Source: Oscillospiraceae bacterium (GTDB lineage Bacteria > Bacillota > Clostridia > Monoglobales > WRAG01). Taken from it: a DNA stretch of 64,000 nt. Below the pieces are notes generated by a model. The model was not told where the DNA came from. It searched no databases and saw nothing but the letters and a program-made list of their open reading frames with translations. Below are positions 14,522 through 58,555 of the stretch, one piece after another. Each line of letters starts with the position of its first letter. The first letter of the stretch is position 1. The translations under genes were made by a program, and so were the position numbers. The stretch covers positions 19,826 through 83,825 of the forward strand of contig WRAG01000004.1 of the NCBI GenBank assembly GCA_009780345.1. The letters run 5' to 3'.

Positions 14522-15274
14522 TTGAAAATACAAGAAAATATCTTAAACATTTTAGCGGAATGTAAAATCGAAGGTAACATTTTATTTTTGCCACCGGAAC
14601 AACTTGACAGGAATACATACGTTGCCGTTAACAAGTGCCTTGAAAATATCGGCGGTAAGTGGAATCAAAAAGAAAAGGGACATATTTTTGATTATGACCC
14701 GACAGAGGCGTTTGACAACCTTTTGTTGACTGGTGAAACGGAAGATATGAAAAAGACGTTTCAATTCTTCCCAACACCAAGGAAGGTTGCGGAAATAGTT
14801 TGCGATATGGCAGAATTATCAACTGCCCAAAACATATTAGAGCCGAGTTGTGGCAAAGGTGATTTGGCTGATGTGATTTACGAGCGCAATCAATCATTGA
14901 TATGCGTTGAAATCAATGAAGATATGAAAAAACTTCTTGACGAAAAAGCTTACGGCGATGTGGTTGTTTATACTGACTTCTTAAAGTTTGAGTCTGACGA
15001 GGCGAAGTCGTTTAACCGCATTGTGATGAACCCGCCGTTTAGCAAACAACAGGACATAGACCATATTTTACACGCTTATAACATATTGCAAGTTGGCGGT
15101 GTTTTAGTTTCAGTTATGAGTGTATCACCGTTTTTCAGAACTAACAAAAAATCCGTTGAGTTTCGTCAATGGTTGGAGCAGAATAATGCCGAAATAGTTG
15201 ATGTCAAAGCCGGGGAGTTTAAGGAGAGCGGGACACTCATACCTACTAAAATTATAAAGGTTGTAAAATCATAA
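14522..15274 (+). CDS. Orphan N6-adenine DNA methyltransferase
   Basis: SAM-binding motif I ILEPSCGKGDL and catalytic motif IV IVMNPPFS. No adjacent restriction gene. Confidence 0.8.
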   Translation: MKIQENILNILAECKIEGNILFLPPEQLDRNTYVAVNKCLENIGGKWNQKEKGHIFDYDPTEAFDNLLLTGETEDMKKTFQFFPTPRKVAEIVCDMAELSTAQNILEPSCGKGDLADVIYERNQSLICVEINEDMKKLLDEKAYGDVVVYTDFLKFESDEAKSFNRIVMNPPFSKQQDIDHILHAYNILQVGGVLVSVMSVSPFFRTNKKSVEFRQWLEQNNAEIVDVKAGEFKESGTLIPTKIIKVVKS

Positions 15275-15342
15275 AAATAAGCACGAATTTGTTTCAAGGG
15301 GTGGGGCGTTGTCCTCACCCTATTTTTATTTTTTGACAGGAG

Positions 15343-16581
15343 ATGAAGAAAATTAGTTTATTCTCATTTTATTTCACAAAAGACTATGCGGCAATCAGCG
15401 CGGACAGCCGACAAAGTGTTTTTGAAAACGGACAATATTTTAAAGTTCACGATAACGCGCAGAAATTATATAAAATTAACGATTTGATTATTGCCGGAGC
15501 AGGACGGTACTATATTATAGACAAGGTGATTGAAGAATTTTCAGCCTTGAACCCAACCGAGCAAACCCCCGAAATTTTGAGGCAGACCGCTCTTTCGATA
15601 TGCGATAGGAAAGCGGAAATTTTGAAGGCTCTCAATATGGACGAATCCATTATTGAACAAGAACTTGAAAGTAACGAAAAATCTTGTGAATTTTGCGTAT
15701 TTACATACGATATGGAGCGGCAGGCGAATGTATATTACAATTTTCATTCAGGCTACGATTTTGAGGTAACGGAGCAAGTTGGAGATGATAGAATTGCGCT
15801 TGCGTGTGCAGGGTACAACAATGTGGAGGCTAACAGGCTTTTCAAGGAATTGCACGACAAACATTCTTCTTATTTGCCGTTACTTTTCAAGAAGGTTTAT
15901 GAAGGTGTGTCCGATGGGACCGTTGGCGGCAAATTAATCTTTATTGAAATGAATAATGGGATTATCACAAATGAGCAAGAAATCAAGTTGACCGACAATA
16001 AGCCAATACGAAGTTTGAACTTGATAAATGAACTTGGCGGCGACAATGTTATTACTTGGATAAATAACAGATTTGAAAATCGTTCCAAAGTTGCGGGCAT
16101 AGATGTTCACGGCAACGGAATTGTATCTTACGACCAAAGCGAAAATGTCCGTTTTAGGGTTCGTCCCGATGATGGCGTGGTTGAAATGTTTGATATGTTC
16201 CTTATTATGCGTTCGGGCAATAACACGATAATTATGAACCCAAATGACGGTATGGCATTTCAGACCAACAACGCTGATCGCTTGCGATTTGATATTACTA
16301 ATGGAATATTAACACTTACAGACGGAACTATTAACAGTTGCAATATTAACGGCGGCAATATCAATGTTGACACCGATATGACAATTGGAAATAACCTCCG
16401 CATATCTGCAAGTACATTTGGACAAGGCATACATTTTGATAATGCTGGTGGCGCAAGAATCGACGTACAAGACCCGTTCACAGGGTGGTTAAACATCTCT
16501 AACGGATTGACCGTGAATGGTCAAACAGTGGCGACTCAACAATGGGTGACACAGCAAATACAAGCCGCATTAGGCGCATAA
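15343..16581 (+). CDS. Proteasome-beta/HslV-like (Ntn-hydrolase) domain fused to fibre-like C-terminal region, paralog 1
   Basis: AISADSR..HDNAQKLYKI..AGAGRY..VSDGTVGGKLIFIEMNNG align with proteasome-beta blocks. The C-terminus has repetitive N/G/T/I-rich segments and ends NGQTVATQQWVTQQIQAAL (tail-fibre-like). Confidence 0.55.
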   Translation: MKKISLFSFYFTKDYAAISADSRQSVFENGQYFKVHDNAQKLYKINDLIIAGAGRYYIIDKVIEEFSALNPTEQTPEILRQTALSICDRKAEILKALNMDESIIEQELESNEKSCEFCVFTYDMERQANVYYNFHSGYDFEVTEQVGDDRIALACAGYNNVEANRLFKELHDKHSSYLPLLFKKVYEGVSDGTVGGKLIFIEMNNGIITNEQEIKLTDNKPIRSLNLINELGGDNVITWINNRFENRSKVAGIDVHGNGIVSYDQSENVRFRVRPDDGVVEMFDMFLIMRSGNNTIIMNPNDGMAFQTNNADRLRFDITNGILTLTDGTINSCNINGGNINVDTDMTIGNNLRISASTFGQGIHFDNAGGARIDVQDPFTGWLNISNGLTVNGQTVATQQWVTQQIQAALGA

Positions 16582-20526: not shown

Positions 20527-20600
20527 TGGAGGCACCACCCGGATTTGAACCGGGGATAAAGGAGTTGCAGTCCTCTGCCTTACCACTTGGCTATGGCGCC
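20527..20600 (-). tRNA. tRNA-Cys (GCA)
   Basis: Reverse complement is GGCGCCATAGCCAAGTGGTAAGGCAGAGGACTGCAACTCCTTTATCCCCGGTTCAAATCCGGGTGGTGCCTCCA. Cloverleaf with CTGCAAC anticodon loop, U73 discriminator and encoded CCA. Confidence 0.9.
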
Positions 20601-24370: not shown

Positions 24371-25357
24371 ATGAATTTAGGCGCAATTCTGCAAGCGATA
24401 AATTTGGGCTTGCTTTGGAGCATAATGGCTATCGGAGTTTTTATAACTTTCCGTATCTTAAACTTTGCCGATCTTACGGTTGAGGGCAGTTTTGTTTTAG
24501 GCGCGGCGGTTGTCGCGCGGCTTATCACGCTGAACCTTGACCCGGCACTGGCGGCGTGGATTCCATTAATCGCAACTTTGGCGGCGGTTTTAATCGGCGT
24601 ACTTGCCGGACTTATAACAGGATTTTTACATACGGTTCTGAAAATTCCGCCGCTTCTTTCGGGAATTTTGACCATGACCGGTCTGTTTTCCATCAATCTG
24701 CGCATAATGGGCATGGCGAACATCAACCTTGGAAGAGGGATTACAACGCTTATGGACCAAGCCGCCGGCGGCTTGAGCAATGTTACAACCGGAATCACCG
24801 GATTGTTCGGCGGCTCAGCCGTCGATGTCGTCTCACGCGACGCTTCAATTGCCGTAGGGCTGGTTTTCGTAATCATCGTTATCATGGCATTGAAATTGTT
24901 TTTTAACACCGAAATCGGCTATGTTATCCGCGCGACGGGTGACAACGAAGCCATGGTTAAAGCGCAAGGCGTCAGCACAAACCGCACAAAAATGCTCGGC
25001 TTGGCGCTCGGAAACGGTTGCGTCGCTCTATCCGGCGCGTTGGTGGCGCAAACACAAGGATTCGCCGACGTTAACATGGGAATGGGAACGATCGTCACCG
25101 GTCTTGCCGCAGTCATAATCGGCGAAGTTATTTTCAGAGACAAAAACAGTCACCGCGTGTTTATCGCAGTAGTGTTCGGCGCGATATTATTCTTTATTAT
25201 CCGAGCGTTTGTGCTTAGTATTCCATGGATGAACGCGAACGATTTCCGCGGAATTACAGCGATAGTAATCGCGATTGCTCTTGCGATTCCGATGTTTAGA
25301 GAGAAGTTTAATTTTCGCCTCAAGAAAGCCGCCTTCGGCAGTAAGGAGGTCGAATAA
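24371..25357 (+). CDS. ABC transporter permease (COG4120-type)
   Basis: 328 aa, polytopic membrane protein, between the binding protein and the ATPase. Confidence 0.8.
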   Translation: MNLGAILQAINLGLLWSIMAIGVFITFRILNFADLTVEGSFVLGAAVVARLITLNLDPALAAWIPLIATLAAVLIGVLAGLITGFLHTVLKIPPLLSGILTMTGLFSINLRIMGMANINLGRGITTLMDQAAGGLSNVTTGITGLFGGSAVDVVSRDASIAVGLVFVIIVIMALKLFFNTEIGYVIRATGDNEAMVKAQGVSTNRTKMLGLALGNGCVALSGALVAQTQGFADVNMGMGTIVTGLAAVIIGEVIFRDKNSHRVFIAVVFGAILFFIIRAFVLSIPWMNANDFRGITAIVIAIALAIPMFREKFNFRLKKAAFGSKEVE

Positions 25358-25358
25358 T

Positions 25359-26153
25359 ATGTTGGTTTGCAAAGATATTCAAAAAACATTTGACGCCGGT
25401 TCGGCAACCGAGAAGAAAGCGTTACAAGGCGTTAGTTTCGAGATGAAAGAGAACGATTTCGTAACCATAATCGGCGGAAACGGCGCAGGAAAATCGACCA
25501 TTCTAAACGCCATCGCCGGCGTATTTCCGGTGGAATCCGGAAATATCCTAATAGACGATAACGACGTAACCCGAATGCCGGAATTTAGCCGCGCGAAATA
25601 TATCGGACGCGTATTTCAAGACCCTCGAATGGGTACCGTTCCGAACATGACGATTGAAGAAAACCTCGCAATCGCGGTTCGCCGCGGGAAAAGGCGAACT
25701 CTGCGTTGGGGAATTACCAAAAACGAGCGCGAAGTATTCTGCGAGTATTTGCAGACTCTCGGACTCGGGCTTGAAAATCGACTAAAAGCGAAAGTCAGCA
25801 CCCTCTCCGGCGGGCAAAGGCAGGCTCTCACACTTTTGATGGCAACAATTCAGAAGCCGCTTATCCTACTACTGGACGAGCACACCGCCGCGCTTGACCC
25901 GAAAACCGCAAAATCCGTGCTAGAGCTTACCGACCGGATTGTAAGCGAAAACAAACTGACTACAATGATGGTAACCCACAATATGCGCGACGCACTAAAG
26001 TGCGGCAACCGTTTGATGATGATGCACGAAGGAAATATTATTTTAGACGTGCAAGGCGACGAAAAAGCAGGATTAACGGTTCCCGACTTGCTGAAAATGT
26101 TTGAACAAGCAAGCGGCGAGGCAATCGCAAACGATAGAATGTTGTTAAGTTAG
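25359..26153 (+). CDS. ABC transporter ATP-binding protein
   Basis: True start MLVCKDIQK at 25359. Walker A GGNGAGKST, signature LSGGQRQ, Walker B LLLLDEHTAALD. Confidence 0.85.
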   Translation: MLVCKDIQKTFDAGSATEKKALQGVSFEMKENDFVTIIGGNGAGKSTILNAIAGVFPVESGNILIDDNDVTRMPEFSRAKYIGRVFQDPRMGTVPNMTIEENLAIAVRRGKRRTLRWGITKNEREVFCEYLQTLGLGLENRLKAKVSTLSGGQRQALTLLMATIQKPLILLLDEHTAALDPKTAKSVLELTDRIVSENKLTTMMVTHNMRDALKCGNRLMMMHEGNIILDVQGDEKAGLTVPDLLKMFEQASGEAIANDRMLLS

Positions 26154-26180
26154 AAAAAACCGCCGAAAGGCGGTTTTTTA
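26154..26180 (+). terminator. Intrinsic terminator
   Basis: AAAAAACCGCC-gaaa-GGCGGTTTTTT. Confidence 0.85.
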
Positions 26181-26186
26181 GTTTTT

Positions 26187-26440
26187 GCGCTGACAAGCGC
26201 ATATGCGCGGCTGTTTCCGCATAGGTTTGCGCCCTACGGGCGCGGGGGTTAAGGCGCCACTCGCCTTAGACCAATATGTCGTCTGCGACGGAGGGCTTTT
26301 TTCTTCAGAGACCGTCTCTAAGGGCGTTTGCGCTTGTCAGCGCAGGACGACAAGGACCTGGTCCTTGCCGCGCCTGCGCGCCCATGCGCAAAATGGTCTA
26401 ATGCGCAACGCACCTTAAGCGCCGCGCCCACAGGGCGCAA
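26187..26440. repeat. R1 GC-rich hairpin-array repeat, mosaic copy A
   Basis: Bounded by GCGCTGACAAGCGC (26187) and its inverse GCGCTTGTCAGCGC (26330). Also contains GCGCCctacGGGCGC, GCAAGGACcaGGTCCTTG-type and GCGCCcacaGGGCGC hairpins shared with the other R1 loci. Confidence 0.7.
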
Positions 26441-26470
26441 AAAAAGCCGCTCTCTCGAGCGGCTTTTTCT
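26439..26470. terminator. Bidirectional intrinsic terminator (serves adhE)
   Basis: AAAAAAAGCCGCTC-tctc-GAGCGGCTTTTTC. Confidence 0.8.
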
Positions 26471-26481
26471 TATTTTCCTAC

Positions 26482-29079
26482 TTATTTCCCGTGATACGCT
26501 TTCAAATACATCTCACGCATCTCTTCCATCAACGGATACCTCGGATTCGCGCCCGTACATTGATCGTCAAACGCCTGCTCAACCATAGAATCAAGCTGCT
26601 TCATAAAATCTTTTTCCGAAATTCCGTAATCCTTAATCGATTTCTTGATTCCAACTTTCGCTTTCAAGTCGTCAATCTTCGCGATAAGTTTCGCAACCTT
26701 ATCTTCGTCCGTTCGTCCGCCGATTCCGATAAACGACGCAACTTCAGCATATCTCTCAATCGCTTTCGGATATTTATACTGCGAAAATGTTCCCATTTTC
26801 TTCGGATTCTCGGTCGCGTTAAATTTGATAACTTCATTAATCAGCAAAGCATTCGCAACACCGTGCGGCAACTCGAACGCAGCGCCAAGTTTGTGCGCCA
26901 TAGAGTGACAAATTCCCAAAAACGCGTTCGCGAACGCCATTCCGGCAATCGTTGACGCATTCGCCATTTTCTCGCGCGCTTCCTCATTTTTGCCATCCTT
27001 GTAGGCAACCGGCAGATATTTGAAAACACTCTTAATCGCCGTTAACGCAAGTCCGTCAGTGTAATCAGTCGCAAGCATTGACGCGTAAGCCTCCAACGCG
27101 TGCGTAAGCGCGTCAACACCCGACGCGGCAGTCAACCCTTGCGGCATATCCATCATAAAATCAGTATCCACAATCGCAATCGTCGGCAACAATTCATAAT
27201 CCGCAAGCGGATATTTTATACCGGTTTTCTCGTCGGTGATAACCGCAAACGGCGTAACCTCCGAGCCCGTTCCGGCAGTCGTCGGAATCGCGACAAACTT
27301 CGCTTTCGTTCCCATTTTCGGGAACGGCGAAATCCGCTTGCGAATATCCATAAACCGCATCGCCAAATCGAAGAAATCAGCCTCCGGATGCTCGTAAAGC
27401 GTCCACATAATTTTCGCCGCGTCCATCGGGCTTCCGCCGCCAAACGCGATTACGCAATCCGGCTCAAAGTCGCGCATAGCTTTCGCGCCCTCTTTCGCCG
27501 TTGCCAAAGTCGGGTCGGGAAGCACGTTAAAGAACGTCGTATGCTGAATCCCCATCTCGTCAAGCTTATCGGTCAGCGGTTTAACGTAATTGTTCTTATA
27601 CAAAAATTCGTCGGTAACGACAAATACTTTTTTCGTCTTGTAAACATCTTTCAACTCAGCAATCGCAATAGGAAGAGAGCCTTTTTTGAAGTAAACTTTC
27701 TCCGGCGTTCTGAACCACAACATATTCTCTCTCCTCTCAGCAACAGTTTTTATATTCAACAAGTGGCAAATTCCAACGTTTTCCGAAACCGAGTTTCCGC
27801 CCCACGTTCCGCAGCCAAGCGTCAACGACGGCGCAAGTTTAAAGTTATACAAATCGCCGATTCCGCCGTGCGACGACGGAGTGTTGATAACGATTCGGCA
27901 AGCTTTCATCATCTCTTCGAATCTTGTCAAGTCCTCTTTCTCGTTCATGTTGATATGAATTGCCGCCGTATGTCCGTAACCGCCGTCTTTTATAAGCTTG
28001 TCAGCTTTCGCAAGCGCGTCGTCGTAAGTTTCGTACTTATACATCGCCAAAATCGGAGACAATTTCTCATGCGCGAATTCTTCTTTCACATCAACGCTTT
28101 CAACCTCGCCGATCAAGATTTTTGTATCCTTGTCAACTTTTATCTTCGCCATTTCCGCGATTTGCGCCGCGGTTTGCCCAACTATGTTCGCGTTCAACTT
28201 ACCATCAATCATCATAGTTTTGCGAACTTTGTCAGTTTCAGCCGCAGTTAAAATATGACATCCGCGTAAAGCGAATTCCGCCTTCACCGCGTCATATATT
28301 TTCGCGTCAACAATCACCGACTGCTCAGACGCGCAAATCATACCATTGTCAAAAGTTTTCGAAACAATCACCGAGTTAACCGCGGTTTGAATATCCGCAG
28401 ATTTGTGAATCAACGCCGGAACATTCCCCGCGCTAACGCCGATTGCCGGCTTCCCTGACGAATAAGCGGCGCGAACCATCGCGTGCCCGCCGGTTGCAAG
28501 AATCAAATCAGCTTGCTTCATAACTTCGTTTGTAAGTTCCAATGACGGAATATCAATCCAACCGATAATCCCCTCCGGCGCGCCTGCGGCAACCGCCGCT
28601 TCAAGCACAACCCTCGCCGCCTCGGCGGTACATTTCTTCGCCCGCGGATGCGGCGCGAGAATGATACCGTTTCGCGTTTTTAGAGCCATCAAAGTTTTGA
28701 AAATCGCGGTTGAAGTCGGATTCGTGGTCGGAATAACCGCCGCGATAACTCCAACAGGCTCAGCATATCTGCGAACACCGAAAGCCGAATCTTCCTCGAT
28801 AACTCCGCAAGTTTTAGCGTCTTTATACTTGTTATAAATATACTCGGACGCATAATGATTTTTGATAACCTTATCTTCGGTAACGCCCATTCCCGTTTCC
28901 TCTCGCGCCATTTTGGCAAGCGGAATTCGATTGTGGTTCGCCGCCAACGCAGCGGATTTAAAGATTTCGTCAACTTTTTCTTGTGAAAATTTCGAAAACA
29001 CCTCTTGCGCCGAACGGATTTCCTCCATCTTCGCAAGCAATTGCTTCACATTTTCAACTTTTTTAACTGTCTTCTTCAT
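26482..29079 (-). CDS. adhE: Bifunctional acetaldehyde-CoA/alcohol dehydrogenase
   Basis: 865 aa with an N-terminal aldehyde dehydrogenase half and a C-terminal iron-type ADH half (..GGGSPMDAAK.., ..HSMAHKLG..). Confidence 0.95.
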   Translation of the reverse strand: MKKTVKKVENVKQLLAKMEEIRSAQEVFSKFSQEKVDEIFKSAALAANHNRIPLAKMAREETGMGVTEDKVIKNHYASEYIYNKYKDAKTCGVIEEDSAFGVRRYAEPVGVIAAVIPTTNPTSTAIFKTLMALKTRNGIILAPHPRAKKCTAEAARVVLEAAVAAGAPEGIIGWIDIPSLELTNEVMKQADLILATGGHAMVRAAYSSGKPAIGVSAGNVPALIHKSADIQTAVNSVIVSKTFDNGMICASEQSVIVDAKIYDAVKAEFALRGCHILTAAETDKVRKTMMIDGKLNANIVGQTAAQIAEMAKIKVDKDTKILIGEVESVDVKEEFAHEKLSPILAMYKYETYDDALAKADKLIKDGGYGHTAAIHINMNEKEDLTRFEEMMKACRIVINTPSSHGGIGDLYNFKLAPSLTLGCGTWGGNSVSENVGICHLLNIKTVAERRENMLWFRTPEKVYFKKGSLPIAIAELKDVYKTKKVFVVTDEFLYKNNYVKPLTDKLDEMGIQHTTFFNVLPDPTLATAKEGAKAMRDFEPDCVIAFGGGSPMDAAKIMWTLYEHPEADFFDLAMRFMDIRKRISPFPKMGTKAKFVAIPTTAGTGSEVTPFAVITDEKTGIKYPLADYELLPTIAIVDTDFMMDMPQGLTAASGVDALTHALEAYASMLATDYTDGLALTAIKSVFKYLPVAYKDGKNEEAREKMANASTIAGMAFANAFLGICHSMAHKLGAAFELPHGVANALLINEVIKFNATENPKKMGTFSQYKYPKAIERYAEVASFIGIGGRTDEDKVAKLIAKIDDLKAKVGIKKSIKDYGISEKDFMKQLDSMVEQAFDDQCTGANPRYPLMEEMREMYLKAYHGK

Positions 29080-36522: not shown

Positions 36523-36541
36523 TGCGATTCCTCCTTTTTTT

Positions 36542-37112
36542 TGCGCCTGCGGCGCATGGTTTTAGGGCGTTGCCCTAAAAACCCTCTTCGCCGTTGTAGC
36601 GGCAGGCGTTGCGCGGGCGCGCGCGGCGCGGCAAGGACCAGTCCTTGCCAATCCAGCAAACTTTTGCGCGCCAAAAGTTTGAACAAAAGCGCCGCCCTCC
36701 CCGTCGCGACCCTCCCCGACAAAAAGCGTCGGGCGGGTGCCCCGCTGACGGAACCGCGGGCGAAAATTAGTGCAATCAACGCACCCTAATCAAAAAACAT
36801 CTCGCGCTTTTAGGCGCGGCACGAATTTTCATTCAAGACTGCGGCTTTTGCCGCCGTAGGCACTTGGCTGACACGTAGATGTTCGCACATCTCATATAGC
36901 GGCGCGCTTTTAATAGCGCCATAGCGCGTTTGCGCCGCAAGTTTGATAAAACTTTTTAAAGTTTTTCGGGGATTGATAAGGGTGTTCGACAACACCCTTA
37001 TCGCTCTGCGGCAGCTGCCGCACCGCCCGCGCCCGCAGGCGCAAAAATAGGTTTTTAGGGCAAAGCCCTAAAAACCATGCGGCCACAGCCGCACATATGC
37101 GCTTGTCAGCGC
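36542..37112. repeat. R1 GC-rich hairpin-array repeat, copy B (inverted partial unit plus full unit)
   Basis: Core 36841-37112 aligns with 55463-55714 and with the reverse complement of 58097-58330. Modules include GCGGCttttGCCGC, GATAAGGGTGTTcgacAACACCCTTATC, TTAGGGcaaaGCCCTAA, GCGGCcacaGCCGC and GCGCTtgtcAGCGC. Confidence 0.8.
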
Positions 37113-38206
37113 AAGACAGCCCGCTCCCACTCCTCCGCGTGAGAAATCAAATCATTCCTCGCCGCGCTATGCCCGTTCTTAATATAAAATCCCGAAACCG
37201 CGTTCGCAATAACAAGCGAATCCCGCAAACTCAAACCATAATACACCGCCAAAGTAAATCCGGCGTTAAAATTATCTCCGCCACCGGTCGAAATCTTCGG
37301 ATTTTTAATAAAATACGTCTCCACCGTCGCCGCGCCGGACTTGTCAAACGCCGTGCTTCCATTATGAAAATGCACGCATACGACATCCAACCCCGTTACG
37401 CTAAGCATATCGCTTTCCTCAATTTTCTCCGGCGCGTCCGAGTCTGTAAGCGCGTTAAAAACCTGCCGATACTCGTTATAATTCAAATTAAGAATAACTT
37501 TACAATGTTTCGAAACATCACGCAAAACGTCTATAACCTCACAAATATCTTCGCTCTTTCGACGCGCGGTATCGCACAAATCAACCGACACAACCGCATC
37601 CGAAATCCCACGAACATTCGGCAAAACCTCATTCGCAAGCCCGCGCCAAATATCGGTCGAATTTATCATATCACTCCAATTAAACATGCCGATAATCCCC
37701 GCGTCCGAATACATTTCCATAAGTTTATCAACGCCAATTAGCTCCTTAACCCGCTCCCACGTGATCTCATTGAGCGAATTCGCGTTAACAAGCATAATCT
37801 TGCCGTCATTAAACTCCAACGCCGTCGTCTCACCCGGATTCGCTATACTGTGAAGCGTAACATTCTCCATATCCGCAAACAATTTATCAGGAACCGGATA
37901 CCCAACCGCGCCGATTAAATCAACATTCGCGCCCAGTTTCGCTAAGGTCGATGAAAATATCGGCGCGTTGCCGCCCAACTTTCGAACTGTCGTATCAATT
38001 CCGACAGAGCAGCTTTTTCCCGCCCGCGCTTTTATATGCTCGGAAAACACTTCCATATCATTAAAATATTCAGCCCCGTCATCTAATTTCTTTTGAATAG
38101 GACGCACAAGTGTGTCAACAAATCCGTCAAACCCCGCAACAACTTTAGGCGAACAGCCCTCGCTGCGTGTCAAAAATTCATTAACCGCATCTTTTATGTA
38201 AGACAT
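37106..38206 (-). CDS. PfkB/ribokinase-family carbohydrate kinase
   Basis: 366 aa with C-terminal STGGGDNFNAGF (GxGDxF-type motif). The last 2 codons and the stop lie inside the terminal R1 hairpin. Confidence 0.7.
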   Translation of the reverse strand: MSYIKDAVNEFLTRSEGCSPKVVAGFDGFVDTLVRPIQKKLDDGAEYFNDMEVFSEHIKARAGKSCSVGIDTTVRKLGGNAPIFSSTLAKLGANVDLIGAVGYPVPDKLFADMENVTLHSIANPGETTALEFNDGKIMLVNANSLNEITWERVKELIGVDKLMEMYSDAGIIGMFNWSDMINSTDIWRGLANEVLPNVRGISDAVVSVDLCDTARRKSEDICEVIDVLRDVSKHCKVILNLNYNEYRQVFNALTDSDAPEKIEESDMLSVTGLDVVCVHFHNGSTAFDKSGAATVETYFIKNPKISTGGGDNFNAGFTLAVYYGLSLRDSLVIANAVSGFYIKNGHSAARNDLISHAEEWERAVLR

Positions 38207-38336: not shown

Positions 38337-38811
38337 TTCAGTAAGCCGGACGGTCGCGTGCATATGCGGCAACGCTTTGCATGAGGAAAGTCCGAGCTCC
38401 ATAGGGCAGGGTGCCGGATAACACCCGGCGGAGGCGACTCCAGAGACAGTGCAACAGAAATAAACCGCCCTAGGAGTGTTCAGTTATGAGTAACCGGAGA
38501 CCGGTCGGCGCACAAAAACCATGCGAAAACCAACAATCGAGCCGCCAGGCGAGCAAACTGGTCCCTGAATACTAATAACTGAACACTCCTAGGGTAAGGA
38601 TGGAAAGGCGAGGTAAGAGCTCACCTACCCTTCGGCGACGAAGGGTGACATGTAAACCTCACTCGGAGCAACATCCGAACGTGGAAATACGCCTGCCCGG
38701 CGTTCCACAAAGTCGATGGCATGAGGCGTGTAGTAATATACGCCCTTAGATAGATGACCGTTAATTGCTCTTCGGGACAATGATACAGAACTCGGCTTAC
38801 GGCTTACTGAA
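38337..38811 (+). ncRNA. rnpB: RNase P RNA, type A, with greatly expanded P12
   Basis: GAGGAAAGTCCGAGCTCC (P4 5' strand), CAGTGCAACAGAAATAAACCGCC..GTAAGGATGGAAAGGCGAGGTAAGAGCTCACC, ACAGAACTCGGCTTAC (P4 3' strand), and P1 pairing TTCAGTAAGCCG/CGGCTTACTGAA. Confidence 0.85.
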
Positions 38812-38923
38812 ATTTAAATTAAAAATTTTTACAAAAATCAAGGAATAAAGATTTTGAGAAACACAAAATCTTCATGAGAGTTGTTAACAAAATTAAAATT
38901 TTGACAACTCTCGAAAAAAGTTC

Positions 38924-39138: not shown

Positions 39139-39288
39139 ATGAGAACAAAAATTACTTTAGCGTGCGGCGAGTGCAAGCAACGCAACTATGACACAATGAA
39201 AAACAAGAAAAATTCACCGGACAGGCTTGAAATGAACAAGTATTGCAGGTTCTGTCAAAAGCACACCGCTCACAAAGAAACGAAGTAG
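39139..39288 (+). CDS. rpmG: 50S ribosomal protein L33
   Basis: [49 protein letters not shown], with RBS GGAG. Confidence 0.9.
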
Positions 39289-39419
39289 GTCAAAAGTGTC
39301 CGAATGGACATGAGGGTCCGGGAAACATCCCGGCCGCCGGCTCGGCGGACTCTAATGACGGACTTCATGTTTTTATAGTGGTTCTGTCAAAAGCACACCG
39401 CTCACAAAGAAACGAAGTA
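39248..39419 (+). repeat. Perfect 40-bp direct duplication of the rpmG 3' end flanking an R2 element
   Basis: GGTTCTGTCAAAAGCACACCGCTCACAAAGAAACGAAGTA occurs at 39248-39287 and at 39380-39419. The first copy is followed by G (TAG stop) and the second by A (TAA). Confidence 0.9.
39293..39367 (+). repeat. R2 structured element, copy 1
   Basis: AAAGTGTCCGAATGGACATGAGGGTCCGGGAAACATCCCGGCCGCCGGCTCGGCGGACTCTAATGACGGACTTCA. Confidence 0.8.
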
Positions 39420-40385: not shown

Positions 40386-40499
40386 ATTTGCGTCAAATTG
40401 CGTGAGATTTCGCCTAAAACGCTCAGAAGTGTATATAAAGATATCCGACTGGGCGTTTTAGGTGAAATGTCGCGTGATTTCACGCAAATCCTAAACTGG
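40386..40499. repeat. R3 hairpin element, copy b
   Basis: ATTTGCGTCAAATTGCGTGAGATTTCGCCTAAAACGC ... GCGTTTTAGGTGAAATGTCGCGTGATTTCACGCAAAT. Ends 12 nt before the rplK start. Confidence 0.7.
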
Positions 40500-41011: not shown

Positions 41012-41698
41012 ATGGGTAAAAAATATGTAGACAGTTTAAAACTTATCGACAGAGATAAGCAATACGATCCGGCGGAAGCGCTTAACTTAGCTTGCAAAAC
41101 CGCCAAAGCGAAGTTTGACGAAACAATCGAACTTCACGTTAAATTGGGAGTTGACTCTCGTCACGCTGACCAGCAGGTCCGCGGCGCGGTTGTTCTTCCC
41201 AACGGAACCGGTAAAGTTGCGCGTGTGTTAGTGTTCGCGAAAGACGCGAAAGCTGACGAAGCAACTGCGGCGGGCGCTGATTTTGTTGGCGCGGAAGACT
41301 TGGTTCAAAAAATTCAAACCGAGAATTGGTTCGACTTTGACGTGGTTGTCGCAACTCCCGACATGATGGGACTTGTCGGACGAATCGGTAAAACGCTTGG
41401 TCCGAAAGGCTTAATGCCTAACCCGAAAGCGGGAACGGTTACACCTGACGTTACCAAAGCGATTTCTGAAATCAAATCAGGTAAAATCGAATACCGTTTG
41501 GATAAAAGCAACATCATCCACTGTCCAATCGGCAAAGCGTCGTTCGGCGCTGACAAGCTTGCGGAAAACTTTAACGCGCTTATGGGCGCGATCATTAAAG
41601 CGAAACCGTCGGCGGCGAAAGGAACTTACCTTAAAAGCGTTTCGGTTGCAAGCACCATGGGCCCCGGCGTTAAGGTGAACTCGTCCAAGCTTGTATAA
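41012..41698 (+). CDS. rplA: 50S ribosomal protein L1
   Basis: 228 aa. ..[31 protein letters not shown]... Confidence 0.95.
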
Positions 41699-41771
41699 AG
41701 TGCCCGAATGGGCATGAGGGTCCGGGAAACGTCCCGGTCGCCGGCACGGCGGACCCTAATGACGGACCTCA
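41697..41771 (+). repeat. R2 structured element, copy 2
   Basis: AAAGTGCCCGAATGGGCATGAGGGTCCGGGAAACGTCCCGGTCGCCGGCACGGCGGACCCTAATGACGGACCTCA. Begins within the rplA stop codon. Confidence 0.8.
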
Positions 41772-41798
41772 AATTTGATAGAAATTAATTTAAATATT

Positions 41799-42109: not shown

Positions 42110-42883
42110 ATGCCAAGTAATAAGGTTTTGGATCAAAAAAAGGAAGTTGTATCTTCCATAGTTGAAACTTTCAAATCATCTGCGGCGGGCGTATTGATTG
42201 ACTATCGCGGGCTTAACGTTGCCGAAGATACCGAGCTTCGTAACAAATTCCGTGAAGCGGGCGTTACTTACACCGTTATCAAAAATACCCTAACTCGTTT
42301 CGCGGCGAAAGAAGTCGGTTTCGACGAACTTGACGGGATCCTGCACGGTCCGACATCGCTTGCGACAAGCGAATCTGACGTAATCGCGCCGGCGAAAATT
42401 ATCGCTGAATTCGCGAAAGACCACCCTGTGGTTGAAATCAAAGCCGGATTTGTTGAAGGAAAAATCGTAAGCATCGACGAAGTTAAGGCGCTTGCGGCAA
42501 TCCCGGGCAAAGAAGTGTTGCTTGCGAAAATGTTGGGAAGTCTTATGGGACCGCTTACAGGTCTTGCTGTTGCGCTTAATGCCGTTGTTGAAAAAGACGG
42601 TAAACCTAGCGCAGAGGAACCCCCTGCGGCAGAAGTTGCAGCAGAAGCTCCCGCTGAGGCAGTTGTAGAAGAAGCGGCAGCGCCTGAGGCTGTAACCGAA
42701 GAAGCTCCTGCGGAAGCAGTAGCAGAAGAAGCGGCACCTGTTGAAGAGGTTGCTGCTGAACCGGCGGCTGAGGAAGCTCCCGCTGAAGCGGCAGCAGAAG
42801 AGCCTGCGGCTGAAGCTGACGTTGACGAAGTGAACGAAGAAAAATCGGACGCGCCTGCGGAAGATGTAGACGCAACTGAATAA
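42110..42883 (+). CDS. rplJ: 50S ribosomal protein L10 with ~90-aa Ala/Glu/Pro-rich C-terminal extension
   Basis: The N-terminal ~165 aa are typical L10 (..VLIDYRGLNVAEDTELR..). The tail from ~42605 is EEPPAAEVAAEAPAEAVVEEAAAPEA... Confidence 0.9.
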   Translation: MPSNKVLDQKKEVVSSIVETFKSSAAGVLIDYRGLNVAEDTELRNKFREAGVTYTVIKNTLTRFAAKEVGFDELDGILHGPTSLATSESDVIAPAKIIAEFAKDHPVVEIKAGFVEGKIVSIDEVKALAAIPGKEVLLAKMLGSLMGPLTGLAVALNAVVEKDGKPSAEEPPAAEVAAEAPAEAVVEEAAAPEAVTEEAPAEAVAEEAAPVEEVAAEPAAEEAPAEAAAEEPAAEADVDEVNEEKSDAPAEDVDATE

Positions 42884-48075: not shown

Positions 48076-48126
48076 AATCGCCCGAATGGGCACCGCCGGC
48101 TCGGCGGACTCTAATGACGGACATCA
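48076..48126 (+). repeat. R2 structured element, copy 3 (internally deleted)
   Basis: AATCGCCCGAATGGGCACCGCCGGCTCGGCGGACTCTAATGACGGACATCA, 7 nt after the ATPase stop. Lacks the CCGGGAaacaTCCCGG hairpin. Confidence 0.7.
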
Positions 48127-53787: not shown

Positions 53788-55185
53788 TTACACGTAATGT
53801 GTCCCATTCTCCATATCCACTAAATCTTGGTCGATTTTATATTTTTGCGCGCGGCGATATTCGAAAAACTTCACCGCAACTTGATCGAACAGCGCGTATG
53901 ATAAAACATCCTCGTCCTGCTCGATATATTCTTTGATTTGCTCGCGCATTGCGTCAAGTTCGGGCGCGATTAAGTCCGCAGGGCGGCAGGTTATAACTTC
54001 CTCGTCGCCGATTATTTTCTTGCGCAACTCGTCTGAAATTTGCACCGGCGTTTTGCCGTATTCGCCTTTTACCAGTCCTTTCGTCTCTTTCGAACACATT
54101 TTGTAGCGCTCGCCCATTACGACGTTGAGCATCGCTTGCGTTCCTACGATTTGGCTTGTCGGCGTGACAAGCGGCGGGAAGCCGAGATCTTCTTTCACGC
54201 GCGGCACTTCTTTGAGCACTTCTTCGTACTTATCTTCGCAGTTTTGCTGCTTCAACTGTGAAATTAGGTTGGACAACATTCCGCCGGGGACTTGGTAGAG
54301 TAACGTGTTGATATCCACCGCAAGAGATTTTGTGTCCAAAACGCCACTCGCTAAATATTTATCCCTAATCGGGCGGAAGTAGTCGGCGCACTCGTTTAAC
54401 GCCGCCAAGTCGAGTCCTGTGTCGTACTCGGTTCCTTGCAACGTCGCAACGATGGTTTCGGTCGGCGGTTGCGAGGTTCCCATTGAAAACGGAGACAGCG
54501 CGCAGTCAACGATGTCAACGCCCGCCTCGATTGCTTTCAAGTAGGTCATTGACGCGAGCCCGCTTGTGTAATGCGTATGCAAATCTATCGGGATTTTTAC
54601 GTTTTCTTTGATTCCTTTCACCAAATCGTAGGCGATGTAAGGCGTCAAAAGCCCTGCCATATCTTTGATACAGATGGAATCAGCGCCCATGTCTTCGAGC
54701 TGTTTCGCGAGCGTTACGAACGATTCGATGTCGTGAGCCGGGCTGATGGTATAGCAGACTGTGCCTTGGACGTGTCCGCGTTCCTTTTTCGCCGCGTTGA
54801 TGGCGGTTTGGAGGTTGCGAACGTCGTTTAGCGCGTCGAAAATTCGGATTATATCGATTCCGTTGGCGATGGATTTTTGCACGAAATATTCCACCACATC
54901 ATCGGCGTAATTTTTGTATCCCAATATATTTTGCCCGCGGAAAAGCATCTGAAGCTTGGTGTTTTTCGCCTCCGCGCGGATTTTGCGTAATCGCTCCCAC
55001 GGATCTTCGTTTAGGAATCGCAAACAAGCGTCAAAAGTCGCGCCACCCCACGCTTCAAGCGCGTGATAGCCGATTTTATCGAGTTTTGAAACGATGGGAA
55101 GCATTTCTTCGGTTGTCATGCGCGTCGCGATTAGACATTGGTGCGCGTCGCGTAAGATGGTTTCCATAATTTTAACTTTTGCCAT
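53788..55185 (-). CDS. Pyruvate/oxaloacetate carboxyltransferase (transcarboxylase 5S / OadA-like, no biotinyl domain)
   Basis: Start MAKVKIMETILRDAHQCLIATRM at 55185 after AGGAGGAA. LRDAHQS-type motif and TIM-barrel blocks. The track N-terminal extension runs into repeat DNA. Confidence 0.85.
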   Translation of the reverse strand: MAKVKIMETILRDAHQCLIATRMTTEEMLPIVSKLDKIGYHALEAWGGATFDACLRFLNEDPWERLRKIRAEAKNTKLQMLFRGQNILGYKNYADDVVEYFVQKSIANGIDIIRIFDALNDVRNLQTAINAAKKERGHVQGTVCYTISPAHDIESFVTLAKQLEDMGADSICIKDMAGLLTPYIAYDLVKGIKENVKIPIDLHTHYTSGLASMTYLKAIEAGVDIVDCALSPFSMGTSQPPTETIVATLQGTEYDTGLDLAALNECADYFRPIRDKYLASGVLDTKSLAVDINTLLYQVPGGMLSNLISQLKQQNCEDKYEEVLKEVPRVKEDLGFPPLVTPTSQIVGTQAMLNVVMGERYKMCSKETKGLVKGEYGKTPVQISDELRKKIIGDEEVITCRPADLIAPELDAMREQIKEYIEQDEDVLSYALFDQVAVKFFEYRRAQKYKIDQDLVDMENGTHYV

Positions 55186-55199
55186 AATTTCCTCCTTTT

Positions 55200-55714
55200 G
55201 CGCCCTGCAGCGAGGGGGCTTTTGCCGCTGCGGCGGCAGGCATTGCGCGAGCGAGCGCAGGCTTTTTCGGGTCCGTCCCGAAGGCTTATGACCTGCCGGT
55301 CGGGCATTAAGGACTCTGCCCTTAATAATCCCGGTCACCTATGGACGCAAACGCAAACTACGCGATTTGCGCCAAAGCCGGCGACGATAAAAGCATTAGT
55401 TAGCTAACCGCTTACGCGGAAAAAGTGCTGAGATATAACGCCGTTTCAGTCAAGCATGCGGCTTTTGCCGCTGTAGGTATTAAACTGAGAGGATATTGTT
55501 CGCAGTCCTTATATAGCGGCACGCTTTTAATAGCGCCATAGCGCGTTTGCGCCGCAAGTTTTTGATAAAACTTTTTCTAAAAAGTTTTTCGGGGCTTGAC
55601 AAGGGCTACGACTAGTCCTTGTCGCTATGCGGCAGTAACCGCAAAAGGTTTTTAGGGCAAAGTCCTAAATAAAAACCATGCGCCCGAAGGGCGCAAATAT
55701 GCGCTTGTAAGCGC
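55200..55714. repeat. R1 GC-rich hairpin-array repeat, copy C (inside the carboxyltransferase operon)
   Basis: 55440-55714 aligns nearly base-for-base with 36820-37112. The terminal hairpin GCGCTTGTAAGCGC is 5 nt from the BCCP stop. Confidence 0.8.
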
Positions 55715-55718
55715 GCAA

Positions 55719-56090
55719 CTATCCTATCGATACCAATATATCGCCGTTGTTTACTGCACTACCGGCGGAAACGTTGATGCTTGCGACGGTTCCCGCGCTT
55801 GGCGCCATAATTTCGTTTTCCATTTTCATCGCTTCTAGTATGCAAAGCACGTCGCCCGCCGCGACAGTATCGCCAACGTTGACGTTTACCGATATGATAT
55901 TGCCCGGCATTGGCGCGGTAACGCTTGCTGCGCCTGCGGGCGGCGCGGCAGTTTGCGCGGCAGCGGGTTTCGGAGCCGCCGATGGCGCGGGCGCGGGTGG
56001 AGCGGCACTTGCCGCAGGCGCCGTTGTGCCTACCTCTTCTACTTCTACCTCGTATGTGTTGCCGTTTACGGTTATTTTATATTTCTTCAT
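55719..56090 (-). CDS. Biotin carboxyl carrier protein (1.3S-type)
   Basis: Ala/Pro linker and biotinylation motif CILEAMKMENEI. Confidence 0.85.
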   Translation of the reverse strand: MKKYKITVNGNTYEVEVEEVGTTAPAASAAPPAPAPSAAPKPAAAQTAAPPAGAASVTAPMPGNIISVNVNVGDTVAAGDVLCILEAMKMENEIMAPSAGTVASINVSAGSAVNNGDILVSIG

Positions 56091-56305: not shown

Positions 56306-56516
56306 AATTTGTGTCAAATTGCGTAATATTTCGTAGAAAGCGTGATGGAGCGTGTATAACAGATACCCGACATCGCGTTTTCGGTGGGCGGTCAACTGCA
56401 TCAAATCACACTTCGTCCAAATACGACTCGTGTTCTTTGGCAGTTTTCACAGGGGAGTTATTAGCGAAATCAAGATTTCAATAACTCTCCCAAGATTGCG
56501 TGATTTCACGCAAATT
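56306..56516. repeat. R3 hairpin element, copy c
   Basis: AATTTGTGTCAAATTGCGTAATATTTCG ... AGATTGCGTGATTTCACGCAAATT. The right end overlaps the stop codon of the 12S gene by 2 nt. Confidence 0.7.
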
Positions 56517-58056: not shown

Positions 58057-58075
58057 GTGGTTTACCTCCTTTTGC

Positions 58076-58554
58076 CGCGGTGCGGCGGGGTGTCTTGCGC
58101 TGACAAGCGCATATGTGCGGCGGCTGCCGCATAGCGACAAGGGCTAATCGTAGCCCTTGTCAAGCCCCGAAAATTTTTTCACAAAAAATTTAGTAAAACT
58201 TGCGGCGCAAACGCGCTATTGCGCTATCAAAAACGCGCCGCGAAAATAGTGCATACAATTTGCCTCTCAGTTTAATGCCTACGGCGGCAAAAGCCGCATG
58301 CTCGACTGAAAACAGTGCTATATCTCGCTAGTCTTTCCGCGTATGCGGTTCGCAAACTTTGGTCGCCCTCATGCCAGACGAGCACACACGCGCCTTTTGC
58401 GTGGGTCGGCGGCATAGTGGCGACGGTTTGATAAAACTTTGCCGTCAAAGTTTTTTGGGGATTGACAAGGGTTTCAATAAACCCTTGTCGTCCTGCCCTG
58501 ACAAGGGCAAATGCTACAGAGCCTCGCTCTGATAAAGCCTGCCGCCTTAGCGGC
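58076..58554. repeat. R1 GC-rich hairpin-array repeat, copy D (inverted unit plus short forward unit)
   Basis: 58097-58330 is the reverse complement of the B/C core. 58420-58500 is a forward partial unit with GACAAGGGTTTcaatAAACCCTTGTC. Confidence 0.8.
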
Positions 58555-58555
58555 A

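Follow-up and report, generated by a model that had tools for sequence, protein, structure and literature searches.

REP elements and the BIMEs (PUs) of Enterobacteria and Pseudomonas are short, G+C-rich extragenic hairpins arranged in mosaics with conserved linkers. They occupy operons and the gaps between co-directional genes, facing either way, show compensatory variation of their stems, form lineage-specific families and persist for long times with a conservation at least that of the neighbouring genes. BIMEs, which combine one to three alternating REP types, bind gyrase and IHF, and REPIN doublets mobilised by RAYT fall into the same class for the present comparison. RAYTs cleave the 5' GTAG tag and are usually encoded by single-copy genes. 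To our knowledge, nearly all work on extragenic palindromic repeats has dealt with Proteobacteria. Modular intergenic repeats of a Firmicute are found in BOX of Streptococcus pneumoniae (boxA-boxB(n)-boxC), which has three module types of 45-60 nt each, defined A and C ends and a variable number of internal modules, adopts a stable secondary structure and is co-transcribed with neighbouring genes; BOX is not known to encode a transposase.

The 5'-foot tetranucleotide GTAG, or CGTC/TGTC, is conserved in REP hairpins, and the tagged REP superfamilies surveyed included no Firmicutes (PMC3733652), while group 1 RAYTs have been reported in Clostridia (PMC5581495). Efa-1, Sta-1 and ERIC exemplify intergenic stem-loop repeat families with multiple copies and predicted folding of either strand; low-GC Firmicutes, Clostridium species among them, are reported to carry such families (Cozzuto et al. 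2008, PMC2267715).

We analysed a 64-kb stretch of DNA (the window) from an Oscillospiraceae MAG, in which four GC-rich intergenic stretches, R1 to R4, belong to one repeat family composed of strings of short hairpins. These are probably lineage-specific, non-coding extragenic palindromic mosaic repeats of an uncultured Oscillospiraceae bacterium from higher-termite guts, and the functional and anatomical counterpart of REP/BIME, with which they share the traits named first above, from the clustered G+C-rich hairpins to the long persistence. The family is previously undescribed, yet REP/BIME-like, and does not amount to a new kind of biology. Unlike REPs, it has neither a 5' GTAG nor a general CGTC tag, and no RAYT was found in ~280 kb searched with approximate queries; it is right to say that the family resembles REPs, but too strong to say that it is one, because the GTAG tag is absent. 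Unlike BIMEs, its units contain at least 10 hairpin species in a semi-fixed order over 220-290 bp. Inverted partial copies are present, but the modules are many hairpins in one order and not alternating REPs, and arrays of up to ~700 bp in a low-GC Firmicute host are likewise unlike REP/BIME. BOX, likewise a modular, structured intergenic repeat of a Firmicute, is set apart by its description from R arrays with their many 14-28-nt G+C-rich hairpins, and the families of PMC2267715 are one stem-loop or an adjacent pair, whereas R arrays consist of 9-17 reshuffled hairpins. Together with the co-resident families described below, it shows that the REP/BIME way of life reaches into uncultured gut Clostridia.

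Four hairpin arrays in the spacers of the window

R1 to R4 are GC-rich islands (51-57% GC) among AT-rich spacers and take up 2.9% of the window, with perfect hairpins accounting for 36-55% of their bases; none of the four is assigned to a strand. Every hairpin listed in the sequence-only reading was found at its place, but the arrays are wider than the core recognised there, filling the spacers and containing at least two more conserved units, B and C, besides unit A. The density is four arrays in 44 kb of chromosomal sequence, any copy number per genome being an extrapolation. The arrays are not assembly artefacts, since R3 was recovered in an independent JGI assembly with 100% identity over 1790 bp.

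The reported locus, R2 (36540-37125), extends from the ketohexokinase stop codon (37106-37108) to the ribosome-binding site of the nitroreductase gene (gene start 36522), both genes being on the minus strand. It comprises an inverted partial copy of the end modules (36540-36590) plus units B and A, with 16-17 perfect hairpins, a GC content of 0.56 and a fold z-score of -7.2 as RNA and -8.5 as DNA. R3 (55196-55718) is located within the methylmalonyl-CoA carboxyltransferase operon, between the genes for the biotin carrier (55719-56090, minus strand) and the 5S subunit (53788-55185, minus strand), and contains unit C (~55283-55443) and a unit A on the plus strand (55444-55714) that is antisense to the operon. 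R4 (58072-58555), directly upstream of the 12S carboxyltransferase gene (start 58056, minus strand), carries a unit A in sense orientation that is devoid of the M6-M7 block (58085-58358, minus strand) and a second, partial copy with M3 and M4 (58426-58531, plus strand). All three take up everything between stop codon and ribosome-binding site. Since arrays are situated inside central-metabolism operons, they may affect the expression of propionate-pathway genes.

R1 (26181-26440) is located between the convergent genes for an ABC ATPase (25275-26153, plus strand) and AdhE (26482-29079, minus strand), whose intrinsic terminators bracket it (26154-26179 and 26441-26468). It is itself approximately palindromic, with a self-inverted match at 26226-26441, and has 55% of its bases within perfect hairpins and a GC content of 0.57. 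A unit of ~270-400 bp had been ascribed to all four loci; it is shared by R2, R3 and R4 (E 1e-36 to 1e-59), but is missing from R1. R2 and R3 (36827-37105 and 55444-55707) are 74% identical over 290 nt (E 3e-47), and the inverted matches of R4 with R3 and R2 amount to 82% over 248 nt (E 2e-59) and 77% over 203 nt (E 2e-36), respectively. R1 shares only 40-70-nt modules with these arrays, all of the outer types (the terminal hairpin twice, and the GNCAAGG, GCGCCC and AAGGCGC hairpins), and its left part runs collinear with the outer modules in arrays located elsewhere.

Hairpin modules and conserved units

The family draws on at least 10 types of short, mostly G+C-rich hairpins, whose order is semi-fixed. 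Stems measure 5-12 bp and loops 3-4 nt, linkers between the modules are recurrent (CATATG, CATAG and GGGATT), and the modules build units of 220-290 bp and, with 9-17 hairpins strung together, arrays as long as ~700 bp. In 37 arrays we counted 375 perfect hairpins of 13-32 nt, all of them extragenic and together covering 43.6% of the array bases, compared to 11.0 +/- 1.1% in shuffled sequence. Loops had been described as mostly 4 nt long; this is the most frequent length (178/375), but 3-nt loops are also common (117/375).

The core, unit A (36826-37113 in R2, plus strand), is a fixed series of hairpins from M1 to M8: M1 (GCGGCttttGCCGC, 36841-36854), M2 (36899-36937), M3 (36948-36965), M4 (GATAAGGGTGTTcgacAACACCCTTATC, 36975-37002), M5 (37007-37022), an extra GCGCC hairpin (37029-37042), M6 (37050-37076), M7 (TGCGGCcacaGCCGCA, 37078-37093) and the terminal hairpin M8 (TGCGCTtgtcAGCGCA, 37098-37113, plus strand), which is usually preceded by YGTCY on its outer side. 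Further copies of M8 are at 26186-26201, 26329-26344, 55701-55714 and 58096-58111, and the terminal 18-mer GCGCTKACAAGCGCATAT occurs five times in the window at up to two mismatches, compared to 0.01 expected. At R2, the loop of M8 holds the stop codon of ketohexokinase, so that the last ~6 codons of this gene are array sequence. M4 recurs at 55598-55623 (with one G-T), at 58464-58489 and, as GACAAGGGCTAcgatTAGCCCTTGTC, at 58136-58161 on the minus strand; it is the hairpin used below for the covariation test. Unit B (36600-36822, plus strand) is a conserved block of 220 nt found in at least 13 arrays (nhmmer E 3.5e-68) and includes the hairpins GGCAAGGAccagTCCTTGCC (36630-36649) and CAAACTTTTGcgcgcCAAAAGTTTG (36657-36681). 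An iterated nhmmer search with the whole core was dropped in favour of anchor-based extraction of the copies, since palindromic modules match in both orientations and the resulting model was promiscuous.

Two other interpretations of the arrays were rejected. A protein-coding reading does not fit because indels of 1, 2 and 4 nt distinguish the copies, which occur in both orientations. A CRISPR array does not fit either, given that neighbouring hairpins are unlike each other and entire units reappear, in either orientation, at unlinked loci.

Pairing is maintained while the stems vary

It had been proposed that the stems differ between copies and stay paired through compensatory change, and this was confirmed for M4, the GAYAAGGG hairpin. 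In 19 copies chosen regardless of pairing, 99.1% of the cells pair, both sides change in 7 of 12 pairs, none of 500 shuffles reaches the observed level and slid controls are 34-57% paired. For two hairpins of unit B, the pairs 33/50, 34/49, 62/80 and 63/79 have both sides changed in 2-6 of 13 copies. The A/T-rich M3 hairpin was left out of the count because its variants pair in different registers in the MAFFT alignment; inspection by eye does show compensatory C-G/T-A variants. M7 adds few independent events, since its variation consists mostly of two allele classes (GCGGC-4-GCCGC and GCGCCC-3-GGGCGC).

The covariation in the array stems is real. Much of it reflects recombination that reshuffles a limited number of hairpin alleles among the copies and therefore does not represent many independent double mutations; a two-base compensatory swap between orthologous copies, for instance, corresponds to alleles found elsewhere in the family. 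G-U makes up ~3% of the M4 cells, and mismatches show no asymmetry between G-T and A-C relative to the sense strand (16 versus 12). An apparent asymmetry relative to the orientation of the element (20 G-T versus 7 A-C) disappeared once inherited mismatches were counted once. Near-perfect pairing with very few G-U, in both orientations, argues for a constraint or a copying process acting on the DNA palindrome, and points away from selection on one transcribed RNA strand. The earlier view that compensatory change keeps the stems paired is supported, but has to be qualified by the shuffling of alleles and by the poor fit of selection on one RNA strand.

Palindromes kept symmetric on both strands could also be clustered sites at which a dimeric protein (gyrase, a regulator or a nucleoid-associated protein) binds double-stranded DNA, much as BIMEs bind gyrase and IHF. 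This reading would account for recurrent flanking motifs such as GGGATT, which precedes the GAYAAGG hairpin in all three units. We consider it highly unlikely, as stems that vary freely while remaining paired are the signature of a hairpin and not of a base-specific site, and the more than 10 unrelated hairpin sequences would require many proteins.

Possible roles of the arrays in transcripts

Arrays occur in either orientation in the spacers of housekeeping genes and therefore are co-transcribed with the operons. A promoter-like site (TTGACA-18-TATACT with a TG extension, 58669-58698, minus strand), recognised only by its match to 11 of 12 consensus positions, precedes R4 within the AT-rich section of the spacer; should it be genuine, the 12S gene would have R4 as its transcribed 5' leader. 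Just past the stop codon of the biotin-carrier gene, M7 followed by a T-run (TGCGCCCttcGGGCGCA TGGTTTTTAT, 55679-55695, minus strand) resembles a terminator, and an equivalent site lies past the ketohexokinase stop codon (37076-37095, minus strand). Over 19 arrays, such terminator-like sites are equally frequent on the two strands, with 18 in sense and 22 in antisense direction, or about one per array per strand, and most array hairpins have no T-run. Compared to expectation, they are modestly enriched in R2 (6 found versus 2.3) and not enriched in the region of R3 and R4 (5 versus 8.1).

These positions raise the question of whether the arrays are structured RNAs, either cis-acting or independently transcribed (leaders, attenuators or sRNAs), with hairpins selected at the RNA level. 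Besides the promoter-like site, the fact that the arrays occupy 5' leaders and intercistronic spacers and leave no space for a promoter before the ribosome-binding site would agree with such a role, as would the covariation, the thermodynamic stability (fold z-scores of -7 to -8.5) and a hairpin, ACCCGCGCG...TGCGTGGGT, in which the same G-T is kept in 7 copies. We nevertheless regard it as quite improbable. The units are equally sense and antisense to transcription (2 sense and 4-5 antisense for unit A; 6-8 sense and 6 antisense for unit B), there is no excess of G-U on the transcribed strand, and no conserved promoter was found inside the units. Moreover, only local hairpins were predicted for unit B (RNAalifold, 13 copies) and for the arrays in general, which are beads on a string devoid of any predicted long-range or multi-helix fold; the downstream genes are functionally unrelated, and Rfam holds no match. 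Under the REP/BIME-like reading, the arrays in transcripts may serve as orientation-independent hairpin barriers, causing partial termination or protecting from exonucleases, and such barriers would punctuate expression within operons.

Distribution of the family

The sequence-only reading had regarded the repeats as a dispersed family and suggested looking for further copies. A scan of metagenomes with the 18-mer revealed 42 additional arrays on 21 contigs, all of them in three JGI sample series, of which one was traced to a higher-termite gut metagenome. Many arrays are located at contig ends, as expected for repeats that break assemblies, and the breaking of metagenome assemblies is a practical consequence. 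Their sizes cluster at 500-700 bp, and about 20 of 22 fill the spacer between co-directional genes, with housekeeping genes such as gyrA, mreB, pgk and spoVA as neighbours.

A search of 185,579 reference genomes, a set that does not include this organism, detected no members, and neither did searches of viral contigs, plasmids, phages and Rfam, in line with the earlier view of a REP/BIME-type mosaic not matching a catalogued repeat. The 26 matches of the 18-mer in reference genomes were dismissed as chance, their flanks being without similarity, and the viral scan gave 0 matches. None of the Rfam covariance models reached its gathering score on the arrays (best E 0.2-2.5, at bit scores well short of the threshold). 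Looking up exact proteins to find strain variants of R2 and R3 yielded the same strain alone, and BLAST of the R loci against the operons of the closest relatives gave no similarity. The array positions are empty in Ructibacterium gallinarum, with spacers of 32-47 bp, and in relatives at 80% identity, with spacers of 44-90 bp.

Module swaps and probable exchange between copies

Strains whose genes are 88-92% identical have parts of same-site arrays swapped for other modules of the family, the swaps occurring at hairpin edges. The array parts retained at orthologous sites are 94.4% and 97.7% identical, which is above the identity of the flanking genes. Copies with and without the M6-M7 block differ exactly between two similar hairpins, and a junction between gene and array shows the microhomology GGCGT. 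Paralogous copies within one genome have diverged by 18-26% and therefore give no sign of recent bursts. No copy could be recognised as a clean insertion, with its ends defined and an empty counterpart site, and the arrays have no constant termini: at 33 aligned M8 termini, the flanks run on into more family modules or genes, the ends vary, and no target-site duplication is visible.

The last observation bears on whether the arrays are MITEs, that is, non-autonomous elements of ~570-630 bp with M8-M7-M6 as terminal inverted repeats and a DDE transposase encoded elsewhere. Several arrays do have inverted M8-M7-M6 at both ends (e.g. 7167-7735 on contig L064), and both the inverted partial copy at the left end of R2 and the clustering of sizes would be explained. 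The variable ends without target-site duplication make this very unlikely, however, as do an outermost module that varies, with family hairpins (GCGCCnnnnGGCGC, AAGGCGC...) often outside M8, orthologous sites that differ by internal module swaps and not by presence or absence of the whole element, and contigs that carry no multi-copy transposase gene.

The hairpins could alternatively be made and held perfect by processes at the level of replication alone, i.e. template switching or fold-back synthesis, slippage between similar hairpins and gene conversion among copies, so that the arrays would be self-perpetuating by-products in the spacers of this clade with neither a dedicated transposase nor a selected function. 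The almost purely Watson-Crick pairing with few G-U, the gain and loss of modules exactly between similar hairpins, the swaps at hairpin edges, the GGCGT microhomology and the lack of detected tags, fixed ends or transposase all speak for this, as does the presence of different hairpin families in the same spacers of sister lineages. Left unexplained are the recurrence of the same 220-290-bp units in dozens of unlinked spacers in both orientations and the conservation of retained segments above that of their coding flanks; in addition, the canonical GTAG REP doublets described below show that a REP-type system exists in this genome group. On balance, we think this explanation unlikely. Doubtful to a similar degree is that the arrays constitute a distinct element class and more than one further REP family: ordered cassettes of at least 10 different hairpins that would homogenise themselves as a population and stay above the conservation of surrounding genes. 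A novel hairpin-specific enzyme would spread or rearrange them, with the GNYAAGG...CCTTRNC hairpin located at unit junctions as the site of exchange, and orientation-independent punctuation of operon transcripts would be their service to the host.

As to how REP/BIME-like repeats of this kind spread, we infer that the copies persist as a population that trades segments by recombination or gene conversion, with modules being gained and lost by slippage between similar hairpins. Exchange, or selection on the DNA palindrome of both strands, may keep the stems Watson-Crick perfect and the retained segments above the conservation of neighbouring genes. The original dispersal would most likely have proceeded via single-stranded DNA hairpins and a Y1 (HUH) transposase of the RAYT/IS200 type.

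Tags, transposases and co-resident GTAG REPs

A search for a transposase of the RAYT/IS200 type had been set as a check beforehand. No Y1 transposase-like ORF was detected in ~280 kb of this genome group, using the HUH/Y motif and phmmer with approximate IS608 TnpA and E. coli RAYT queries; the negative result is weak, both because the queries were approximate and because RAYTs are usually single-copy. Pfam assigned only housekeeping families, among the matches listed, to 109 ORFs of the contigs. At 748 hairpin sides, GTAG was never found within 6 nt 5' of the hairpin, and a YGTC tag was found at 33, essentially at M8 alone.

The script that scored the tags does pick up genuine GTAG REPs at other places of these contigs. 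The GTAG REPs had come to light when the spacers in the operons of the closest relatives were read by eye. Neither GTAG doublets nor the CCTCAGTC family are present in the 64-kb window. The contigs L064 and L068, which also carry R arrays, contain a GTAG-tagged inverted doublet (9803-9871) and a single GTAG REP (9679), respectively. In the sister lineages L030-L032, GTAG REP doublets occupy the very spacers held by R3 and R4. These doublets are simple, tagged 23-nt hairpins in inverted pairs, in contrast to the untagged R family, but share with it the genomes and the types of spacer in which they are found. At least three hairpin-repeat families are co-resident in this termite-gut Oscillospiraceae genome group, one of them an unusually elaborate multi-hairpin mosaic. 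Tagged REP doublets beside an untagged mosaic offer a natural comparison for the origin of such repeats, the upkeep of their palindromes and their exchange, to which the sister lineages with other families at the same spacers add. Some copies of unit B contain a decayed GTAG-GGGCGA-like hairpin (at 8034 on contig L066).

Hairpin arrays R1 to R4 and their placement

The sequence-only reading had described a dispersed family of GC-rich hairpin arrays at four loci, here called R1 to R4 and bounded at 26181-26440, 36540-37125, 55196-55718 and 58072-58555, and all hairpins that it listed were found in place. Local alignments between the loci revealed that the four arrays are real and related: R2 (36827-37105) aligned to R3 (55444-55707) over 290 nt with 74% identity (E 3e-47), R3 to inverted R4 over 248 nt with 82% identity (E 2e-59), and R2 to inverted R4 over 203 nt with 77% identity (E 2e-36). 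R1 matched R2/R4 over 40-44 nt with about 90% identity (E 8e-9); the common unit claimed for all four loci is present in R2, R3 and R4, but R1 has no more than modules in common with them. The terminal motif GCGCTKACAAGCGCATAT was found in five copies in the window, allowing at most 2 mismatches, compared to 0.01 expected. The GC content of the arrays is 0.51-0.57 compared to 0.25-0.46 in the other spacers of the window, perfect hairpins hold 36-55% of their bases, and folding of the R2 core gave z-scores of -7.2 (RNA) and -8.5 (DNA) against shuffles. The window matches ENA contig k141_1937692, and a separate JGI assembly contains R3 with 100% identity across 1790 bp, which rules out an assembly artefact as the source of the arrays. 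Rfam gave no match on the arrays, its matches in the window being RNase P, two tRNAs and the L10 leader only, and the family, unrecognised in the sequence-only reading, is indeed without any catalogued match.

Each array occupies a whole spacer, both between genes and within an operon. R2 extends from the ketohexokinase stop codon, which lies within the loop of the terminal hairpin of the array, to a few bases short of the nitroreductase ribosome-binding site, and the last ~6 ketohexokinase codons are array sequence. R3 is located within the methylmalonyl-CoA carboxyltransferase operon, with the biotin-carrier gene on one side and the 5S gene on the other. R4 lies immediately upstream of the 12S gene and downstream of a strong promoter-like site (58698-58669); should this site be genuine, R4 would be a 5' leader. 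R1 is found between two convergent genes with their terminators on either side.

Host and distribution

The host is an Oscillospiraceae bacterium, whose nearest named relative by 12S protein is Ructibacterium gallinarum (80% identical). An 18-mer scan of 185,579 reference genomes gave 26 matches, all of them due to chance, and no match to the family was found in viral contigs, plasmids and phages. The 18-mer scan of JGI metagenomes yielded 42 loci, 21 of which were true relatives, all from the sample series Ga0123352, Ga0123355 and Ga0136643. The last series is part of metagenome 3300010369, a data set cited in a gut-compartment metagenome paper on the higher termites Labiotermes labralis and Embiratermes neotenicus (PMC7800795). 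Iterated BLAST marked 42 arrays on the contigs of the relatives, many of them at contig ends, and the array total, including the four arrays of the window, is ~15.8 kb. Since these contigs encode housekeeping and sporulation genes, e.g. gyrA, mreB, pgk and spoVA, they are chromosomal.

Anatomy of the arrays

A census of all arrays no shorter than 100 bp (37 regions, 15.2 kb; perfect stems of at least 5 bp, loops of 3-8 nt) gave 375 perfect hairpins, mostly with loops of 4 nt (n=178) or 3 nt (n=117), covering 43.6% of the bases compared to 11.0 +/- 1.1% in dinucleotide shuffles. The core, unit A, spans 270-290 bp (36826-37113 in R2) and consists of hairpins M1 to M8 in this order. At least 13 arrays share the conserved unit B (220 bp, 36600-36822), unit C (about 55283-55443) was found again in many arrays, and additional modules located outside units A to C are GCGCCnnnnGGCGC, AAGGCGCgttGCGCCTT and a 'GATTGGYTGAAACCTAC' unit. 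In each of units A, B and C, an A/T-rich hairpin is followed by GGGATT-like bases and then by a GNYAAGG...CCTTRNC hairpin, which makes the three units distant relatives. RNAalifold predicted local hairpins only and no long-range helices.

Four arrays (L043, L067, L068 and L071; e.g. L068 about 6060-6140) contain an ~80-nt sub-element (…CGACTCGCTTACGCTCACTGGATAATTCGACTACAGCTTGCATAATACGCAAGCTAAGTCTCA…) that is missing at the same position in others; the imperfect AGTCTTTCC-like direct repeats on both sides of it may be the mark of a small insertion.

Covariation and orientation

For the GAYAAGGG hairpin (M4), 19 copies were gathered via an anchor sequence upstream of it, and their pairing played no part in the selection. 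As the sequence-only reading had proposed, the stems stay paired while varying, with standard pairs in 99.1% of 216 cells and changes on both sides in 7 of the 12 pairs (27 cells). In none of 500 shuffles did the pairing, the number of double-change cells or the covariation score reach the observed value, and sliding the partner by 1-3 columns lowered the pairing to 34-57%. Two hairpins of unit B behaved likewise: one of their pairs occurs as GC in six copies, UA in five and AU in one, and at two adjacent pairs the copies divide 7:6.

Compared to the genes on either side, units are found in both orientations: unit A is sense in 2 cases and antisense in 4-5, and unit B is sense in 6-8 and antisense in 6. 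On the sense strand, G-T and A-C are equally common among single-mismatch hairpins (16 vs 12). G-U accounts for only ~3% of M4 cells, and each strand has roughly one terminator-like hairpin per array. Taken together, these results disfavour selection on one transcribed strand, and we favour a constraint or copying process that acts on the palindrome in both strands. A mismatch asymmetry by element orientation (20 vs 7) was rejected as it reflects inherited copies of one hairpin.

Turnover between copies and strains

Five core copies contain the M6-M7 block and four lack it; the boundary falls exactly between M5 and M7, two similar hairpins, which is what slippage or unequal exchange would produce. 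Four contig pairs are orthologous, with gene identities of 88-92%, and comparisons of such pairs showed mosaic turnover between strains. In the pair L056/L068, identity is 94.4% over the first ~360 nt of the array and the remainder consists of other family modules; the arrays differ by a 50-nt deletion, an ~80-nt insertion and a two-base compensatory swap in one hairpin, both alleles of which are known elsewhere in the family. Between L065 and L036, the gene-adjacent 130 nt are 97.7% identical, compared to 88% for the gene, and homology stops precisely at the base of a GCAAGG hairpin. The arrays of L071 and L072 are wholly different from the stop codon on. Copies within one genome are 18-26% diverged, unlike the retained orthologous segments. 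These comparisons suggest that the copies are old, that retained segments are constrained or homogenised, and that exchange between members of the family rebuilds the arrays.

Relation to REP-type repeats

In R. gallinarum and other 80%-identity relatives, the spacers at the R4 and R3 positions measure 32-47 bp and 44-90 bp. Relatives of 89-90% identity carry other hairpin repeats at these positions, including canonical GTAG-tagged REPs in inverted doublets, e.g. GTAGGGGCGGCgttttGCCGCCC with its inverted partner. In these termite-gut Oscillospiraceae contigs, the tagged hairpins (GTAGGGGCGGCAttcTGCCGCCC) form inverted REPIN-like doublets in L064 (9803-9871), L030 (4218-4294) and L032 (1237-1421) and occur as one copy in L068 (9679-9701); L064 and L068 also carry R-family arrays, as do the contigs with a third family (CCTCAGTC...GACAGCTCC...GGAGCC; L051 and L068). 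Several hairpin-repeat families are thus present in this genome group, and one of these belongs to the classical REPIN type. To our knowledge, tagged REPs have so far been undescribed in Firmicutes. In a more distant relative (L033, 12S protein 80% identical), an ~135-nt hairpin-containing unit, repeated ~2.5x in tandem downstream of the 5S gene (15155-15560), is another lineage-specific hairpin repeat.

Firmicutes are absent from the list of a tagged-REP survey (PMC3733652), Group 1 RAYTs, the transposases of REPs, were reported for Clostridia (PMC5581495), and low-GC Firmicutes are known to have stem-loop repeat families of one or two hairpins (PMC2267715). The R family differs from the classical REP superfamily in that none of 748 hairpin sides carries a 5' GTAG; a YGTC tag was found within the family on M8 only. 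It differs also from MITEs: the M8-M7-M6 series is inverted at both ends in some arrays, but 33 aligned M8 termini showed neither a constant end nor a target duplication. No Y1 transposase-like ORF was detected in ~280 kb, a weak negative as the query sequences were approximate. The REP/BIME-like interpretation of the sequence-only reading is supported, and a lineage-specific REP/BIME-like mosaic family is the best-supported assignment. Dispersal could proceed via single-stranded hairpins by a Y1 transposase, gene conversion would homogenise the copies, and the arrays may act at the RNA level as hairpin barriers. What stands out is that many different hairpins are strung in conserved order and co-reside with tagged REP doublets.

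Other features of the window

The first ~20 kb (1-20600) have a lower GC content (35-43%), encode a serine recombinase (1382-2074), an FtsK/SpoIIIE protein (2071-3234) and a primase-like protein (8276-10425), and end next to a tRNA-Cys (20527-20600, minus strand). The region, which contains no R-family array, looks like an integrated mobile element, and its genes are also found on JGI contig Ga0136643_10002307 (L029).

A second hairpin-rich family, unrelated to R, is present in spacers of the ribosomal-protein region (39293-39372, 41697-41776 and 48093-48126; 89-97% identical), with one copy directly before the L10 leader. The first copy lies between exact 40-nt direct repeats (39248-39287 and 39380-39419), which may reflect either a partial tandem duplication of 132 bp or a target duplication of unusual length. 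Following the L10 leader, a 257-aa ORF (42110-42883) includes degenerate 57-nt repeats (42613-42828) encoding an Ala/Glu/Pro-rich stretch. The RNase P RNA (38338-38814; class A, 273 bits) measures 477 nt compared to a 367-position model, and its internal 38-nt inverted repeat (38468-38505/38557-38594) suggests a long inserted helix. The motif ATTTGCGTCAAATTGCGTnAGATTTCG lies upstream of genes at 40386-40438, 56307-56359 and 61513-61565, once as an inverted pair (61604-61639) and in one case within the carboxyltransferase operon, and may be an operator for one regulator.
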